Assembly: GCA_023301725.1 (NCBI GenBank)
Contig: JALZUD010000079.1
Span: 3,324 to 67,323, forward strand
DNA: 64,000 bases
Reading direction: 5' to 3'
Source: Granulosicoccus sp.
GTDB lineage: Bacteria; Pseudomonadota; Gammaproteobacteria; Granulosicoccales; Granulosicoccaceae
Below are positions 43,100 through 49,908 of the stretch, one piece after another. Numbering within the stretch: position 1 is the stretch's first letter; each line of letters starts with the position of its first letter. Made by a program: the position numbers and the translations under genes. A model generated the notes under the pieces. The model was given only the letters and a program-made list of their open reading frames with translations. It did no database searches and had not been told where the DNA came from.

Positions 43100-44092
43100 A
43101 TGAAATTTTTAAAATCGACTCTTGCAGCCACTGCAATTGCAACCGTACTAGGAGGCGTGGCTATGACTGCAAGCGCCGCCGATCTTACACTGCGTGCCGC
43201 TAGTCTTTTTGATGAAGAGCATGCCTATACCAAAACATTACGAGAGTTTGAGCGTCTTGTTGCTGAAGCGTATACAGGTGAAATTGAGTTTGAAATGCAC
43301 CTAAACGGTGAGCTAGGTGACGAGAGCGATTTCGTGACATTTTTACAGCAGGGTGTTGCTATTGATTACGCGGTAATGGCGCCTTCGAACATGGCTGTTT
43401 TTGCTCCAGCAATTCCATTGATGGATATGCCTTTCTTATTCCGTGATTTAGATCATTGGAATGCCGTACTGTCTTCAGATGTTTTAAAGCCACTCGAAGA
43501 TGAGCTGTCTGAAAAAGCTGACATCAAAGTTATAGGCTATGCAGGCGGTGGTACTCGTAACTTAGCTTCAGCCGATCCTATTGCCAATATGGATGAACTG
43601 ACGGGCCACAAGATGCGCGTTATGGGCGCACCTATCCAGGCAAAAATCTTTGCATCTATTTCAGCAGCACCTGCAGCTATTGCTTACAACGAAGTCTATA
43701 ACGCTATCCAGACTGGTGTTATTGGTGGATTCGAAAACGAAGCAGCGTCAATTCAGAACCTTAAGTTCTACGAAGTAGCACCAAACATCACATTAACCAA
43801 GCATGCGATTACTGTGCGCCCATTGGTGATGAGTGGCAAGAGCTTTCGCAACCTGTCAGAAGACCTACAAGCTATTGTTATGGAAGCAGGCGCCGCTGCT
43901 GGTGCTTTCGGTCGTGAGATCGAAAGCCGTGAAGATGGTGAGAAGCTGAAAGTTATGGAAGATGCTGGTCAAATTGTGGTCACTGAATTCGAAAACCGTG
44001 ATCAGCTGCTAGAGCTTGTTGTTCCGGTTCAAGATGAATTTGCTGCTGATCTTGATGCTACTGAATTGCTCGAAGCTATTCGCGCAATGTAA
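43100..44092 (+). CDS. TRAP transporter substrate-binding protein (DctP)
   Basis: Signal peptide, PFLFRD..H, G.KMRVM, YNEVYNAIQTGVI.G.EN. Confidence 0.92.
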   Translation: MKFLKSTLAATAIATVLGGVAMTASAADLTLRAASLFDEEHAYTKTLREFERLVAEAYTGEIEFEMHLNGELGDESDFVTFLQQGVAIDYAVMAPSNMAVFAPAIPLMDMPFLFRDLDHWNAVLSSDVLKPLEDELSEKADIKVIGYAGGGTRNLASADPIANMDELTGHKMRVMGAPIQAKIFASISAAPAAIAYNEVYNAIQTGVIGGFENEAASIQNLKFYEVAPNITLTKHAITVRPLVMSGKSFRNLSEDLQAIVMEAGAAAGAFGREIESREDGEKLKVMEDAGQIVVTEFENRDQLLELVVPVQDEFAADLDATELLEAIRAM

Positions 44093-44127
44093 TTAGTTAG
44101 AAACGCGGCACACCAGATTAGCTTGGT

Positions 44128-44652
44128 GTGCCGCATCGATTCACCTATTTGGACGCACTCACGATGGGCAAGGTACTTGAACATTTTTGTATGGGGCTAC
44201 GTTTCCTGGTCGGTCTGTTGACCATGCTGTTAGCGTTGCCGGTAGCCGCCCAGGTCTTAGCTAGATACACTGGAATCATTCCTGTGTATCTTTGGACCGA
44301 AGAGCTAGCAACTTTCATTTTTGTATGGGTGGTAATGATAGGTTCTATGATTGCAGTATGGGATGGCACGCATTTTTCGGTAGAGGTTTTGCCTGAGTCA
44401 AAATCGCCACTCATAAAACTTATTCAAAAATCATTTGTACTTGTTCTACTCATAATGTTCGGATTGATGTTTGCCTGGTACGGAATTGAATACACAAAAT
44501 TTGGTTTCATCCAACACTCTGTAATGTTGAATGCCAATATGGTTGTTACACATGTGTCTGTATTAATTGCCGGGCTGGTGTGGGCTTTGTTCGCTGGGTA
44601 CCGTCTGTATGAAGCCATCGGTGAGTATCGACAGACGAGGACTGCCTCATGA
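44128..44652 (+). CDS. TRAP transporter small permease (DctQ)
   Basis: QV.ARY, WTEELA.F.FVW, HFSVE; four TM; start may be ATG 44164. Confidence 0.9.
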   Translation: MPHRFTYLDALTMGKVLEHFCMGLRFLVGLLTMLLALPVAAQVLARYTGIIPVYLWTEELATFIFVWVVMIGSMIAVWDGTHFSVEVLPESKSPLIKLIQKSFVLVLLIMFGLMFAWYGIEYTKFGFIQHSVMLNANMVVTHVSVLIAGLVWALFAGYRLYEAIGEYRQTRTAS

Positions 44653-45959
44653 TGATAATTTCAACAGGCTTGGCGTGTGCGATTCTGGTAGGTGGTTTTC
44701 TTCTATTGGTAATGCTTCGCGTACCGGTCGCTTTTGCTTTGGGCTTAGCCACCATCCCCATTGTTGTACTTGATTTACGCTTAACACCGTTCATTCTTCT
44801 TGACCGGATGTTTCAATCTTATAACTCCTTTATTTTGCTGGCTGTGCCGTTCTTTTTGTTGGCAGCAAACTTAATGAATTCAGGCAAGATTACAGACCGG
44901 ATGATAGACCTTGCAAAGGTCATGACGGGCTGGCTTCCTGGTGGCTTAGGCCACGTTAACGTTGTAGTGTCCATGTTATTCGCAGGCATTTCAGGCTCGT
45001 CAACAGCGGATGCTGCGGGTTGTGGCAAGATTCTGATACCCGCCATGAAGCGTGAAGGCTTTGATGCTCGATTCGCTGTCGCTATCACCGCATGTTCATC
45101 GGTCATGGGGGTCATTATTCCACCAAGTATCTTGATGGTGGTTTGGGGTGGTGTCATGCAAATATCGGTAGGTGCCTTATTTCTCGCGGGTGCTGTGCCT
45201 GGATTTCTTATTGGTCTGGCGTTGCTCCTTACCGTCTATGGCTATGCCAAAGCGCACGGATATCCAACCTCTGCTCGCCCAACGCTCGGTGAATCCTGGA
45301 GAGCATTTACCGGTTCAATCCTTGCTCTACTGACACCCGTGTTTGTGGTGGGCGGAATTATTGGTGGCATTGTGACGCCTACTGAGAGTGCCATCATCGC
45401 GGCAGGCTACGCAATGATTCTGGGCTTGTTTGTTTATAGAACCGTCAGCTTTAAACAGCTGGGTCATATTTTTTACGACACCGGAAGGTTTGCATCGATT
45501 TCGCTTTTTGCTATCGGCACCGCTACCGCGTTTGGATGGTTGCTGGCTTACTATAAAGTGCCTCGTTTAATTGTTGAGTGGCTAACGCTAATTGATGCAG
45601 GTCCCTTTGGAACAGGCCTAGTCATCGCATTGTTATTCTTGTTGTTCGGTTTGTTCATTGATGCCATCCCCACCATCATCATTCTAGGCACTGTTTTAAT
45701 GCCGGTGGCAGCAGGCGCTGACATCCATCCGATTGTGTTCGCTATCATCGGGATTATTTCTTTGGCTTTTGGACTCGTAACCCCGCCTTATGGATTGTGC
45801 TTGCTTATCTCAGCCGCCATTGGCGAATTGAATGTGGTGCAAGTGATCAAGGATGTGGTGATTATCCTGATACCTATGCTCGTCATCCTGCTTCTGGTTA
45901 TTGTCTTTCCAGAGATAGCACTGTGGTTGCCACGGTTGTTTATGCCAGGGACTATCTAG
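44649..45959 (+). CDS. TRAP transporter large permease (DctM)
   Basis: LLAVPFF.LA, FAGISGSS.AD, IIPPSI, TPTES, TPPYG. Confidence 0.94.
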   Translation: MMIISTGLACAILVGGFLLLVMLRVPVAFALGLATIPIVVLDLRLTPFILLDRMFQSYNSFILLAVPFFLLAANLMNSGKITDRMIDLAKVMTGWLPGGLGHVNVVVSMLFAGISGSSTADAAGCGKILIPAMKREGFDARFAVAITACSSVMGVIIPPSILMVVWGGVMQISVGALFLAGAVPGFLIGLALLLTVYGYAKAHGYPTSARPTLGESWRAFTGSILALLTPVFVVGGIIGGIVTPTESAIIAAGYAMILGLFVYRTVSFKQLGHIFYDTGRFASISLFAIGTATAFGWLLAYYKVPRLIVEWLTLIDAGPFGTGLVIALLFLLFGLFIDAIPTIIILGTVLMPVAAGADIHPIVFAIIGIISLAFGLVTPPYGLCLLISAAIGELNVVQVIKDVVIILIPMLVILLLVIVFPEIALWLPRLFMPGTI

Positions 45960-46128: not shown

Positions 46129-47001
46129 TTAAGCTGCAACTAGCAGATGCGTCTTAATCTTCTTCATAGCTGCCTTCTCGATCTGCCTGATTCGCTCAGC
46201 GGATACGCCGTATTCGTCAGCCAGCTCGTGCAACGTGGATTTCTCCTCTTGCAACCATCGACGCTGCAGAATGTTTCTGCTTCTGTCGTCTAGTATTTCC
46301 ATACCAGCTGCCAGGCCGTCGTGTGAGTTAGTTCTGCCATCCTCACGTTCAAGGATCATGGACGGGTCGTCTTGCTCCTGAAACAGCATGTCAGAAGGGG
46401 ACAGACTCACTCTGTCCTCGCTGGAGCCTGCAGGTGCATCAAACGCGCTGTCGTGCCCGTGCATGCGCGATTCCATCTCGACAACCACTTTTTCGTCAAC
46501 ACCGAGATCTTCTGCTACGGCAGATACTTCATCCTGGCTGAACCAGTTGAGTTCTTTCTTAGCGCTTCGCAGCTTGAAGAACAGTTTACGTTGTGATTTG
46601 GTCGTTGCCACTTTCACGATACGCCAGTTCTTGATCACGAATTCGTGAATCTCGGCGCGGATCCAGTGGACTGCGAAAGAGATCAGGCGTACGCCGACAT
46701 CTGGGTCAAAGCGTTTTACTGCCTTCATCAGGCCAATATTGCCTTCTTGGACCAAATCAGACATGGGGAGGCCGTAGCCTTTGTATGAGCGAGCAATATG
46801 AACCACAAAACGCAGCTGCGACATGACTAGCTGTCGGGCAGCGTCGAGGTCTTCGCTGTCTCGCAGACGACGTGCAAGGGTCTGCTCTTGCTCTACGGAC
46901 AGTAGATCGATGTTGGCGATCTTGGACATGTAGCTGTTCATGTCATCAGCGATGACTGGGATAGCTACTGCGGTGTTGTTTATTGTCAGCGCGTTACTCA
47001 T
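46129..47001 (-). CDS. rpoH: RNA polymerase sigma factor sigma32
   Basis: LRFVVHIAR.Y.GYGL..SDL.QEGNIGLMKAVKRFDP, WRIVKVATTKSQRKLFFKLR (RpoH box), VSAERIRQ.E. Confidence 0.97.
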   Translation of the reverse strand: MSNALTINNTAVAIPVIADDMNSYMSKIANIDLLSVEQEQTLARRLRDSEDLDAARQLVMSQLRFVVHIARSYKGYGLPMSDLVQEGNIGLMKAVKRFDPDVGVRLISFAVHWIRAEIHEFVIKNWRIVKVATTKSQRKLFFKLRSAKKELNWFSQDEVSAVAEDLGVDEKVVVEMESRMHGHDSAFDAPAGSSEDRVSLSPSDMLFQEQDDPSMILEREDGRTNSHDGLAAGMEILDDRSRNILQRRWLQEEKSTLHELADEYGVSAERIRQIEKAAMKKIKTHLLVAA

Positions 47002-47037
47002 TGAATGTACTCTCCGACGACTGTAGGAAGTGATATT

Positions 47038-47064
47038 TTAGCACTCACCTAGTGAGAGTGCTAA
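47038..47064. promoter_or_regulatory. CIRCE element (HrcA operator)
   Basis: TTAGCACTC-acctagtga-GAGTGCTAA: exact TTAGCACTC-N9-GAGTGCTAA consensus, 36 nt from the rpoH ATG. Confidence 0.93.
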
Positions 47065-47079
47065 TTAGCAGGTTAGTTC
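47053..47079 (-). promoter_or_regulatory. Putative sigmaE (RpoE/AlgU) promoter of rpoH
   Basis: Minus strand GAACTA-N16-TCTCA vs GAACTT-N16-TCTGA (E. coli rpoH P3); the -10 lies inside CIRCE. Confidence 0.55.
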
Positions 47080-47175
47080 GAGCGGTATTTGTTTACAATT
47101 TGAGAAGTCGACTACCTAGGCTCATAAAAACTCTTACGAAAACAATATCTTACTGGATCTGTGTGGGCTTTAAAC

Positions 47176-48129
47176 TTAATGTCTGAGGTGTTGTGACGGT
47201 CGAAAGAGGCTGCTAACAGCGCCCACTAGACCCAAACACACGCAAACCGAGATAACGAGCAATATTTGAGACAGCGTTGGCATTGAGACGGCAAATTCGT
47301 TCTGATATAGCGATGACAGCGTATCGGCAGGATTTTGCACGGCATTTAGGGCAAACAAGCCGATAACGCAGGCAAGTACCCCCCCCAACAAGCCGTATAC
47401 TGCGCCGGTGTAGACAATTGGGCGATTCATGAAATGTCGAGGTGCTCCCAATAGATTGGCGACTTCAAGTTCACTTTTTCTTCTCACTAATTCCAGACGA
47501 ATGGTATTTGTGATGACCAGCAGCGCGCTCAATGTTAGGAATGCTGCTAGTAAGCCGCCTATCCACGCCAGTAAGCTCAGAGCCGCTGCTAGTCGTCTCA
47601 CCCAGCGCAAATCCAATTGCACGCGCTCAACTTCGGGGATATTTGCCAGAGCCTCTGCCAGTCGGTCGGTGCTGCCAGAGGTGATATCTGTGATTTGCGG
47701 ATAGACCACAATGGCTCCCGGCAAAGGGTTTGCGCCCAATAAGGCAATGGCGCTGCTAATGTCACTTGCCTCACCCAGCATGGCAAGCGATTGGTCCTTC
47801 GAGATGTAGTCAGTACGCGCGATATCCTGTCTTGTCAGCCAGGCTTTAGCTAATTCAGCACCAGCAACATCACTAACGTCGACACGCAGATAGGTTGTGA
47901 TGCTCTCGCCCTCAAGGCTTCGATGACCAAGGGTAGCCAGATTAAGATAGGCAAAGTACAGAATCACAGGTAAGGCCAGAGTGACTCCGAGCATTAATAG
48001 TGTGCCCAAAGAGGCAATTCGTTGTTGTTTGAGCTGGCGTATGCTTTGCGACAATGCGTACCCTCGGCGGGTATAGGTCCATCGTGCGCCGCTACCATCC
48101 AGTGTGTCAGGGTCTGGCTTTGTGCTCAT
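47176..48129 (-). CDS. ftsX: Cell division permease
   Basis: NPLPGAIVV, D.RWV.RL, NTIRL...R..E.EV..LLGA...F..RP.VY.G; follows ftsE. Confidence 0.92.
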   Translation of the reverse strand: MSTKPDPDTLDGSGARWTYTRRGYALSQSIRQLKQQRIASLGTLLMLGVTLALPVILYFAYLNLATLGHRSLEGESITTYLRVDVSDVAGAELAKAWLTRQDIARTDYISKDQSLAMLGEASDISSAIALLGANPLPGAIVVYPQITDITSGSTDRLAEALANIPEVERVQLDLRWVRRLAAALSLLAWIGGLLAAFLTLSALLVITNTIRLELVRRKSELEVANLLGAPRHFMNRPIVYTGAVYGLLGGVLACVIGLFALNAVQNPADTLSSLYQNEFAVSMPTLSQILLVISVCVCLGLVGAVSSLFRPSQHLRH

Positions 48130-48848
48130 GAGCTGACCTTTCTTGTCGCTGAGTGTTTTCTCGAGCCGTGCGCTGACTGGGTGGATTTAGCTTCGTCATG
48201 AATCAGCTGGCCGTTCGCAAGGGTCAATCGTTGAAAAGGGTACGTTTGCAACAGATGTTCATCGTGGGTCGCAAAAACTACGGTGACACCAGAGGCATTA
48301 AAATGCATCAGCAGTTGCATGATCTCCTGACTCATCTCACTATCAAGGTTGCCAGTGGGCTCATCGGCCAATAACAACTTAGGCCGGGCCACTACGGCGC
48401 GAGCAATACCCACTCTCTGTTGCTCTCCACCAGAGAGATTAATGGGCTTCTCCGCGCCGCGCTGACCGAGTCCTACCTTGGTTAGCGCGGCATTTACGCG
48501 CAATTTGATATCATCAAAATGGTATCCACCAATGATTAACGGTAGCGCGATATTGTCGAAAACATTGCGATCATGAAGTAGCTGATTGTCTTGAAAAACG
48601 ATACCCATCTGCTGCCGAAGCGCGCGCTCTTGGCGCACGCCTAGCTCGCTGTAGACGATATTGCCCACCTGAATATCTCCCGAGGTGGGTCGCGTAAGGC
48701 GCGCTATAAGCTGTAGCAATGAGCTTTTTCCAGCGCCAGAATGTCCGTTAAGGAACGTGAATGAGCCTGATTTCAGGTCGAACGAAAGGTTCTCAAGCGC
48801 GTACTTGCCTAAGCGGTATTCAAGGCTAACATTCTGGAAGCTGATCAC
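48126..48848 (-). CDS. ftsE: Cell division ATP-binding protein
   Basis: GHSGAGKSS, GIVFQD, LSGGEQQRVGIARA, LLADEPTGNLD. Start set at GTG 48848. Confidence 0.95.
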   Translation of the reverse strand: MISFQNVSLEYRLGKYALENLSFDLKSGSFTFLNGHSGAGKSSLLQLIARLTRPTSGDIQVGNIVYSELGVRQERALRQQMGIVFQDNQLLHDRNVFDNIALPLIIGGYHFDDIKLRVNAALTKVGLGQRGAEKPINLSGGEQQRVGIARAVVARPKLLLADEPTGNLDSEMSQEIMQLLMHFNASGVTVVFATHDEHLLQTYPFQRLTLANGQLIHDEAKSTQSAHGSRKHSATRKVSS

Positions 48849-48933
48849 GGTAAGTTCGCATTTCTGTGCTGTCAATCTGCGAAAGGAGTATAGAAGTTGA
48901 AGTGAGTTTGTCTGTTAAATAATGGTACGAATG

Positions 48934-49908
48934 CTAACTATCGTTCGACAGCAAGGCATCCACATAACGCTTGGCCTCGAATACTTCGAGATCCGCAACT
49001 TGCTCACCCACCCCAATAAAACGGATGGGAAGCTTGAGTTTGTCTGCGATAGCAAAGACAACACCACCCTTGGCTGTTCCATCAAGTTTGGTTACCACCA
49101 TGCCAGTCAGGTCCATTGCTGTATGGAACTGCTCGGCTTGATTGAGCGCGTTTTGCCCGGTTCCACCGTCTAGAACAATAAGTGTTTCGTGTGGTGCCTG
49201 TGGGTCGATCTTGCCAATCACCCGCTTAACCTTGCGTAGCTCTTCCATCAAGTTATCTTGTGTGTGAAGCCTGCCGGCGGTGTCGGCAATGAGCACATCA
49301 ATGCCTTTGGATTTTGCTGATTGCACGGCATCAAATATCACCGACGCCGAATCTGCCCCACTACCTTGAGACACTACCGGCACCTGATTGCGCTCGCCCC
49401 AAGTTTGCAACTGTTCAACAGCAGCTGCTCGAAACGTATCGCCAGCCGCCAACATGACACTCTTGCCGCCATCCTGTAGCTGTTTGGCCAACTTGCCAAT
49501 AGTAGTTGTCTTGCCCGAGCCATTGACGCCAACCACAAGGATGACGAACGGCTTAGCGTCGTCAGGTATTTCAAGTGGTTGTTCGACAGGCTCGAGCAGT
49601 AGGGACAGCTCCTTGATTAATGCAAGCTTCAGCGCTTCAGAGTCGTTGACTTCGGTACGCCCTACTTGCTGACCAAGCGAATCCATGATGCGAGAGGTGG
49701 CGTCAATGCCAACATCTGCCATGATGAGTTTGCTCTCCAACTCTTCGAGCAGATCTGCATCAATCGGCTTGTTGCCCAGCATGAAGTCGAGAAGATTGTC
49801 TCGGAATCGAGAGCGGGTCCGCCCAAGCTTTTTGTCTAGAGGTGCATCAGGCTCTGGTGCCTGATCGCTGCCTTGTTTTTGTCTCTTTAAAAAACTGAAT
49901 ATACCCAT
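48934..49908 (-). CDS. ftsY: SRP receptor (short form without long acidic domain)
   Basis: GVNGSGKTTTIGK, DTFRAAA, DTAGRLHT, TKLDGTAKGG. Confidence 0.97.
   Translation of the reverse strand: MGIFSFLKRQKQGSDQAPEPDAPLDKKLGRTRSRFRDNLLDFMLGNKPIDADLLEELESKLIMADVGIDATSRIMDSLGQQVGRTEVNDSEALKLALIKELSLLLEPVEQPLEIPDDAKPFVILVVGVNGSGKTTTIGKLAKQLQDGGKSVMLAAGDTFRAAAVEQLQTWGERNQVPVVSQGSGADSASVIFDAVQSAKSKGIDVLIADTAGRLHTQDNLMEELRKVKRVIGKIDPQAPHETLIVLDGGTGQNALNQAEQFHTAMDLTGMVVTKLDGTAKGGVVFAIADKLKLPIRFIGVGEQVADLEVFEAKRYVDALLSNDS

Follow-up and report, generated by a model that had tools for sequence, protein, structure and literature searches.

In the textbook account of sigma32 control, which derives from Escherichia coli, there is no HrcA, and regulation is exerted mainly through translation and proteolysis. 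The P3 promoter of E. coli rpoH is the founding sigmaE promoter, and sigmaE-driven rpoH is also known in Pseudomonas and Xanthomonas. In Xanthomonas campestris, sigmaE-dependent rpoH was reportedly described by Bordes et al. in 2011. Permina and Gelfand are said to have listed CIRCE before rpoH for beta- and gammaproteobacteria in 2003.

The activity of HrcA depends on GroESL (review PMC7053576), and SigE of Bordetella bronchiseptica transcribes the rpoH (fam) promoter in vitro (Barchinger et al. 2012, PMC3490749). The initial annotation of this DNA had supposed that CIRCE near rpoH might already be predicted in some proteobacteria, and this is so for Geobacter: in the accessible part of Rodionov et al. 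2004 (PMC545781), which also cites Permina and Gelfand 2003, a perfect CIRCE is predicted at -51 before rpoH of Geobacter sulfurreducens. The accessible text of a Cupriavidus tagRNA-seq paper mentions multiple transcription start sites (TSSs) for rpoH, and no rpoH entry was found in the available portion of its supplements. The HrcA-rpoH and sigmaE-rpoH links are each already known or predicted. For a physical overlap of CIRCE and a sigmaE promoter at rpoH, a full-text search found no paper, which is weak evidence, most subscription journals being outside its reach. The three-way interlocking described here is an under-described but widespread architectural detail.

The window, that is, the whole 64,000-nucleotide stretch analyzed, from a marine Granulosicoccus, carries the sigma32 gene rpoH (290 aa) at 46129..47001 on the minus strand. 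The gene was assigned from its open reading frame (ORF), its genus-conserved start and a match of RpoH to the NCBIfam profile TIGR02392 (rpoH_proteo; 391.8 bits, cut-off 323.1); the protein is 93% identical to the RpoH of a Granulosicoccus MAG. The start codon is supported by the genus alignment, in which an ATGAGT start and a GGAG Shine-Dalgarno sequence are kept. Here the Shine-Dalgarno sequence reads GGAGAG (47010..47015, minus strand), with the GG(A)G block kept in that alignment. Upstream of rpoH on the same strand lies ftsY-ftsE-ftsX (47176..49908; ftsY at 48934-49908, ftsE at 48126-48875 and ftsX at 47176-48129, from ORFs and NCBIfam matches to FtsY, FtsE and FtsX). The ftsX-rpoH spacer is 174 nt long, and no terminator-like site was predicted between the two genes when 46900-47300 was scanned. 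The assembly totals 4.33 Mb over 148 contigs, with a completeness of 94% and a GC content of 49%. On the opposite strand, 3' of rpoH, three consecutive ORFs (43100-45959, plus strand) resemble a TRAP-type transporter, with a periplasmic solute-binding protein of 330 aa, a small membrane protein of 174 aa and a large membrane protein of 436 aa.

A perfect CIRCE, the predicted HrcA operator, is located in the ftsX-rpoH spacer at 47038..47064. It matches TTAGCACTC-N9-GAGTGCTAA at 18 of 18 specified bases, the window reading TTAGCACTCACCTAGTGAGAGTGCTAA at this position. In the orientation of rpoH, the left arm occupies 47064-47056, the spacer 47055-47047 and the right arm 47046-47038, and the distance from the end of the CIRCE to the rpoH ATG is 36 nt, just as the initial annotation had reported for an exact CIRCE. 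No other match with up to 3 mismatches occurs in the window, where shuffled sequences gave an expectation of 0.04. The site is also the only perfect CIRCE in the whole genome (4.33 Mb). A search for other CIRCE sites in the genome, as proposed in the initial annotation, gave one good further site, with 1 mismatch, before groES-groEL (contig C115, 15805-15831); three further matches with 3 mismatches correspond to the noise level of a reversed-pattern control.

The motifs at rpoH were established in silico, as were the extent to which they are conserved and their joint occurrence with hrcA and rpoE. Among same-genus relatives with readable DNA upstream of rpoH, 16 of 17 have a CIRCE with 0 or 1 mismatch at the same place, its arms being invariant and its 9-nt spacer variable, and the remaining, GC-rich relative has a symmetric CIRCE variant with 4 mismatches. 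For a wider comparison, a class sample was compiled with one genome per family (121 genomes, 116 of them with usable DNA upstream of rpoH), and a CIRCE was called at up to 3 mismatches and up to 350 nt upstream of rpoH. By this measure a CIRCE precedes rpoH in 66 of 77 genomes with hrcA and in 2 of 39 genomes without it (Fisher P = 4.5e-18). The CIRCE is missing at rpoH in the other 11 of the 77 hrcA-containing families, and the GAAC core described below is missing at 13 of the 58 CIRCE sites from rpoE-containing families; the interlocked layout is common, not obligatory. In one relative (G029, locus L039), tandem CIRCE-like repeats precede rpoH, with TTAGCAGTC-N9-GAGTGCTAA followed 5 nt on by a perfect CIRCE; this lineage has neither an RpoE-type sigma factor nor a GGAACT element.

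The gene for the cognate repressor, on which the initial annotation depended, was found by profile search at 16426-17094 of contig C72 (PF01628, 213.5 bits), and the N terminus of its product also matches TIGR00331. E. coli, which served as a control in this search, lacks HrcA. In the present genome hrcA is the first gene of an hrcA-grpE-dnaK-dnaJ operon. In one genome of the genus (G008, locus L024), which is 82% complete, no hrcA match was obtained, so that the absence of the gene is unproven. At its rpoH the CIRCE arms have decayed, with 3 mismatches each (TCGGCAGTC ... GAGTACAAG), TAAAAT is gone, GGAACTC-N16-TCTCA is retained and the rpoH start lies about 150 nt further downstream. A CIRCE with 2 mismatches is still present at groES in that genome; hence the loss of hrcA is not certain.

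A sigmaE-type promoter motif overlaps the CIRCE on the strand of rpoH. Its -35 element, GAACTA (consensus GGAACTT), lies at 47074..47079 on the minus strand, 9 nt upstream of the CIRCE, and was assigned from the sequence and from GGAACTT or GAACTA at the homologous position in the genus. The -10 element, TCTCA (consensus TCnnA), follows 16 nt later at 47053..47057 on the minus strand; it straddles the junction within the operator, with 2 nt from the end of the left CIRCE arm and 3 nt from the beginning of the spacer. This agrees with the arrangement proposed in the initial annotation, a GAACTA-N16-TCTCA motif (47079-47074, a 16-nt spacer, 47057-47053) whose -10 overlaps the CIRCE. From the usual distance of 6-8 nt after a sigmaE -10, the start site is predicted at 47045..47047 (minus strand), inside the CIRCE. 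The motif in the window, cGAACTA-N16-TCTCA, keeps the sigmaE core with 2 deviations in the -35 element; its counterpart in relatives, GGAACTT-N16-TCnnA overlapping the CIRCE, is kept throughout the genus and recurs in many families outside it.

The breadth of this arrangement was seen in a pattern scan for GAAC-N10-12-perfect CIRCE across 185,579 species genomes, which gave at least 120 loci. Among the matches listed, 92 loci immediately precede rpoH. Their hosts belong to Rhodocyclaceae, Burkholderiales, Thiobacillus and Xanthomonadales (Dyella, Rhodanobacter, Arenimonas and Dokdonella), and further from Woeseiaceae, Halieaceae, Alcanivorax, Ectothiorhodospira, Leucothrix and Granulosicoccaceae. 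Positions that were left free in the search show a consistent pattern at these listed rpoH-linked sites: GAAC is preceded by G in 71-78 of 92 and followed by T in 60 of 92. The third spacer position is A in 83 of the 92 sites among the matches listed and T in the other 9. The resulting profile of these beta- and gammaproteobacterial sites is GGAACTT-N16-TCnnA. It is also A in 43 of the 45 fused sites of the class sample, compared with only 2 of 23 groES-linked CIRCEs of the same relatives. The non-rpoH loci among the matches listed are mainly from Clostridia. At several of those from Clostridia/Oscillospiraceae (L043, L048, L049, L072, L087, L114, L116, L122 and L143), a shared block, tatGAACAAactgtaaata, adjoins the perfect CIRCE; it is probably a conserved sigmaA promoter of a chaperone operon in these Firmicutes.

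The sigmaE-type motif follows the presence of RpoE, which was scored as an RpoE-type sigma factor above the TIGR02939 cut-off. In the class sample, which provides an estimate free of the bias of the pattern scan, GAAC lies at N10-12 before the CIRCE in 45 of 58 rpoE-containing families and in 0 of 10 families without rpoE (P = 3.9e-6). With a relaxed motif sought up to 300 nt upstream of rpoH, 55 of 65 genomes with both hrcA and rpoE gave a match, where shuffles would give 1.2, and 0 of 12 genomes with hrcA and without rpoE did so. The present genome encodes rpoE-rseA-rseB (TIGR02939, 303.7 bits, cut-off 236.15, in the profile search). The three genes lie at 553-3255 of contig C127 on the minus strand, where rpoE precedes an RseA-like ORF of 273 aa, whose RseA match is confined to the N-terminal 70 aa and which has a long, acidic, low-complexity middle region, and then an RseB-like ORF. 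A motif of the same type stands upstream of rpoE itself: it reads GAACTT-N16-TCTAT in this genome, and the form kept throughout the genus is GAACTA-N15-gTCnTA. Autoregulation of this kind is expected of an ECF sigma factor. A scan of the genome for further sigmaE-type promoters gave 29 candidates, several of them before genes for exported proteins and before lpxC; the number was near the chance expectation, and the scan was not used as evidence. In two genomes of the class sample with rpoE and without hrcA (G110 and G113), the sigmaE-type motif before rpoH still holds a recognizable CIRCE left arm (TGTGCACTCTTA and TTTGGCACTCTTA), which suggests remnants of the fused unit following the loss of hrcA.

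A second promoter-like element lies on the other side of the operator. The promoter scan returned TTAGCA-N18-TAAAAT, with 9 of 12 matches and a TG, which gives the extended -10 sequence TGcTAAAAT at 47035..47043 on the minus strand (TG at 47043-47042, hexamer TAAAAT at 47040-47035). It is made up of the right CIRCE arm, GAGTGCTAA, and the next 3 nt (AAT). The -35-like hexamer, TTAGCA, falls in the left CIRCE arm (47064-47059, minus strand), 18 nt upstream of the -10. It has only 4 of 6 matches to a -35 and this spacing is long, so the strength of the promoter would rest on the extended -10. The start site is predicted at 47028..47031 (minus strand), on the assumption that transcription begins, as is usual, about 7 nt past the hexamer.

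The 3 nt that follow the CIRCE are A in 58, A in 74 and T in 91 of the 92 rpoH-linked sites among the matches listed, the third being the best conserved non-CIRCE position at rpoH sites. This T, the last base of the TAAAAT hexamer, is found in only 11 of the 28 non-rpoH sites among the matches listed (P = 2e-12). In the class sample it occurs at 64 of 68 rpoH-linked sites, 9 of the 10 lineages without RpoE and GAAC included, and at only 2 of 23 groES-linked CIRCEs of the same relatives. The possibility that AAT belongs to an extended HrcA site was rejected, since the symmetric left flank is not conserved and groES-linked CIRCEs lack AAT; the lack of the third-position T at groES indicates that AAT is not needed for HrcA binding. 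The most economical reading of the sequence conservation is that AAT after the CIRCE forms part of a sigma70-type -10. No other partner of the rpoH operator is then as widely conserved as the predicted extended -10, and a sigmaE-type promoter appears to be added wherever RpoE exists.

These observations bear on the strict AND-type gate that the initial annotation had proposed, in which rpoH has a single sigmaE promoter gated by HrcA, so that envelope stress and GroE titration are both required, and TAAAAT is no promoter. In favor of this explanation, the sigmaE-type motif is genuine and conserved and goes with the presence of rpoE, and the sigma70 -35-like hexamer is weak and set at the 18-nt spacing. 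It is unlikely nevertheless. The T in the third position is kept at rpoH and mostly absent at groES, in the numbers given above, and it persists in 9 of 10 lineages that have neither RpoE nor the GAAC -35 element. Lineages without rpoE need another promoter for rpoH, and as an extended -10, TGnTAAAAT comes close to the consensus. In addition, rpoH is essential or has a housekeeping role in related bacteria (Xanthomonas, PMC6085468), which argues against expression under double stress only. The second element, which is the better conserved of the two, would allow sigma70-driven rpoH transcription without sigmaE. With TGcTAAAAT beside the sigmaE element, HrcA would gate two promoters, and the strict sigmaE-AND-HrcA gate is given up.

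The opposite simplification is that in this genome only the sigma70 extended -10 and HrcA act, GAACTA-N16-TCTCA being a decaying, nonworking relic of an ancestral sigmaE promoter. The -35 region here is indeed the most diverged in the genus (cGAACTAacctgctaa, compared with the genus consensus gGAACTTtGCCGcTaa): the G before GAAC is missing, the final T is replaced by A and the GCCG block has diverged. Because of this divergence, the sigmaE promoter may be weaker in this genome than in its relatives. That it has ceased to work is rather improbable, however, because GAACTA is exactly the -35 of the genus-conserved, autoregulatory rpoE promoter and recurs at rpoH in three further species of the genus, and because nothing has been lost from the GAAC core, the 16-nt spacing or TCnnA.

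It is very improbable that the inverted repeat acts mainly as an RNA hairpin affecting stability or translation in ftsYEX read-through, or is a nonfunctional chance palindrome: without a predicted terminator between ftsX and rpoH, read-through transcripts with both arms could exist, but a hairpin would be expected to show compensatory changes, whereas in dozens of families it is the spacer that changes and the arms that stay at the exact HrcA consensus, the occurrence of the site follows that of hrcA (P = 4.5e-18), the arms have decayed and the sigmaE motif is kept in the 82% complete same-genus genome in which hrcA was not matched (its absence there being unproven), and a chance palindrome is excluded by the 0.04 matches expected from shuffles at up to 3 mismatches. 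The conservation pattern of the rpoH CIRCE fits a protein-binding site rather than either of these.

The feedback part of the proposal concerns the promoters of the chaperone genes. Before hrcA, a sigma32-type promoter, CTTGAT-N13-14-CCCTTAGTTTA, is kept in the genus (17443-17538 of contig C72; relatives L195-L209), and no CIRCE was found before the hrcA operon in the genus. In several other families of the class, a CIRCE is located before hrcA instead. Of the 28 sampled relatives in which groES was matched, 23 have a CIRCE with up to 2 mismatches before it, and at these groES-linked sites of relatives a TTGAyA-N16-TAnnAT promoter ends on the first base of the CIRCE. At the groESL promoter TTGATA-N16-TAGAAT fits sigma70 at 10 of 12 positions; the alternative, CTTGAT-N13-CCTTAG, resembles the genus hrcA promoter. 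The groESL promoter is thus ambiguous between a sigma70 and a sigma32 type. The groES CIRCE and the groES start are 182 nt apart here (15622-15831 of contig C115) and about 46-66 nt apart in most same-genus relatives, which suggests that about 120 nt were inserted into the leader or that groES starts elsewhere.

A feedback loop is better supported through the conserved sigma32-type promoter before hrcA than through groESL. The sigma32-GroE-HrcA-rpoH loop envisaged in the initial annotation is possible, its route through groESL being left ambiguous by the two promoter types. The further suggestion that sigma32 itself converges on rpoH found no support. When 47065-47175 was read, no convincing sigma32-type promoter was found directly before rpoH, and autoregulation of rpoH by sigma32 was rejected for this reason.

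The sequence evidence makes it fairly likely that the CIRCE is a working HrcA operator on the rpoH core promoter region, interlocked with a sigmaE and a sigma70-type promoter, and that HrcA gates both. HrcA binding, the GroE dependence of HrcA, the use of the two promoters and their start sites are inferred. HrcA bound to the CIRCE would occlude both rpoH promoters. In promoter coordinates, a dimer seated at 47038-47064 would extend from -37 to -9 on the extended -10 promoter and from -12 to about +10 on the sigmaE promoter; the predicted sigmaE start would lie inside the operator, and the start of the sigma70-type promoter about 10 nt beyond it on the downstream side. By analogy with Bacillus and Chlamydia, HrcA would need free GroEL/ES to be active, a dependence known from Firmicutes and Chlamydia, which are other lineages than this one. 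Unfolded proteins would then titrate GroE, HrcA would be released and rpoH would be derepressed. After the release of HrcA, sigma70 would provide basal rpoH transcription, and sigmaE, when freed by envelope stress, would provide stronger transcription. The gate would take the form NOT HrcA AND (sigma70 OR sigmaE). Because sigma32 would drive hrcA-grpE-dnaK-dnaJ, it would induce its own transcriptional repressor together with DnaK, DnaJ and GrpE, which would close a negative feedback loop.

More tentatively, and with slightly less than even confidence in the three parts taken jointly, the interlocked unit may represent a modular arrangement that is ancestral in Beta- and Gammaproteobacteria, with HrcA, the chaperonin sensor, standing above sigma32 and gating both the housekeeping and the envelope-stress input to rpoH, the mainly post-transcriptional control of E. 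coli being derived after hrcA loss; lineages that lost rpoE would have kept the half with the CIRCE and the extended -10, and the sigmaE half would have survived in one or more lineages with a possible loss of hrcA.

About two-thirds of the families sampled in the class encode HrcA, and most of these put its predicted operator on the rpoH promoter. In such bacteria two classic heat shock regulators would be wired in series, and the status of the cytoplasmic chaperonin would decide whether sigmaE, responding to envelope stress, and housekeeping RNA polymerase can raise sigma32. One operator overlapping two promoters would be a simple, compact and testable model of signal integration, and cultured species of Granulosicoccus exist. 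The practical result for the present DNA is that the rpoH regulatory region is annotated and the gate logic proposed for it is corrected.

Compared with the HrcA-CIRCE systems of groESL and hrcA-grpE-dnaKJ (the Bacillus subtilis paradigm, also found in Chlamydia, Caulobacter and rhizobia), the rpoH site has the same 9-bp inverted repeat and 9-nt spacer, and the repressor gene is likewise present. As in the Bacillus type, the operator overlaps the core promoter or the start site of a heat shock gene, groESL carries a CIRCE and GroE dependence is presumed. The locus differs from that type in that the target is the sigma32 gene and not a chaperone operon, in that the arms would supply promoter elements for two sigma factors and in that the hrcA operon has no CIRCE in this genus.

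The predicted Geobacter site resembles the present one in being a perfect CIRCE some tens of nucleotides before rpoH, implying a cascade from HrcA to sigma32. The accessible part of that report (PMC545781) gives only the site, with neither a sigmaE overlap nor an embedded extended -10, and does not cover Granulosicoccaceae. With E. coli P3, Bordetella fam and Xanthomonas rpoH, the locus shares GGAACTT-N16-TCnnA directly upstream of rpoH and an RpoE-RseA-RseB system in the genome. E. coli P3 has no repressor operator, because E. coli has no HrcA, whereas here the -10 element and the predicted start site of the sigmaE-type promoter lie inside the predicted HrcA operator.
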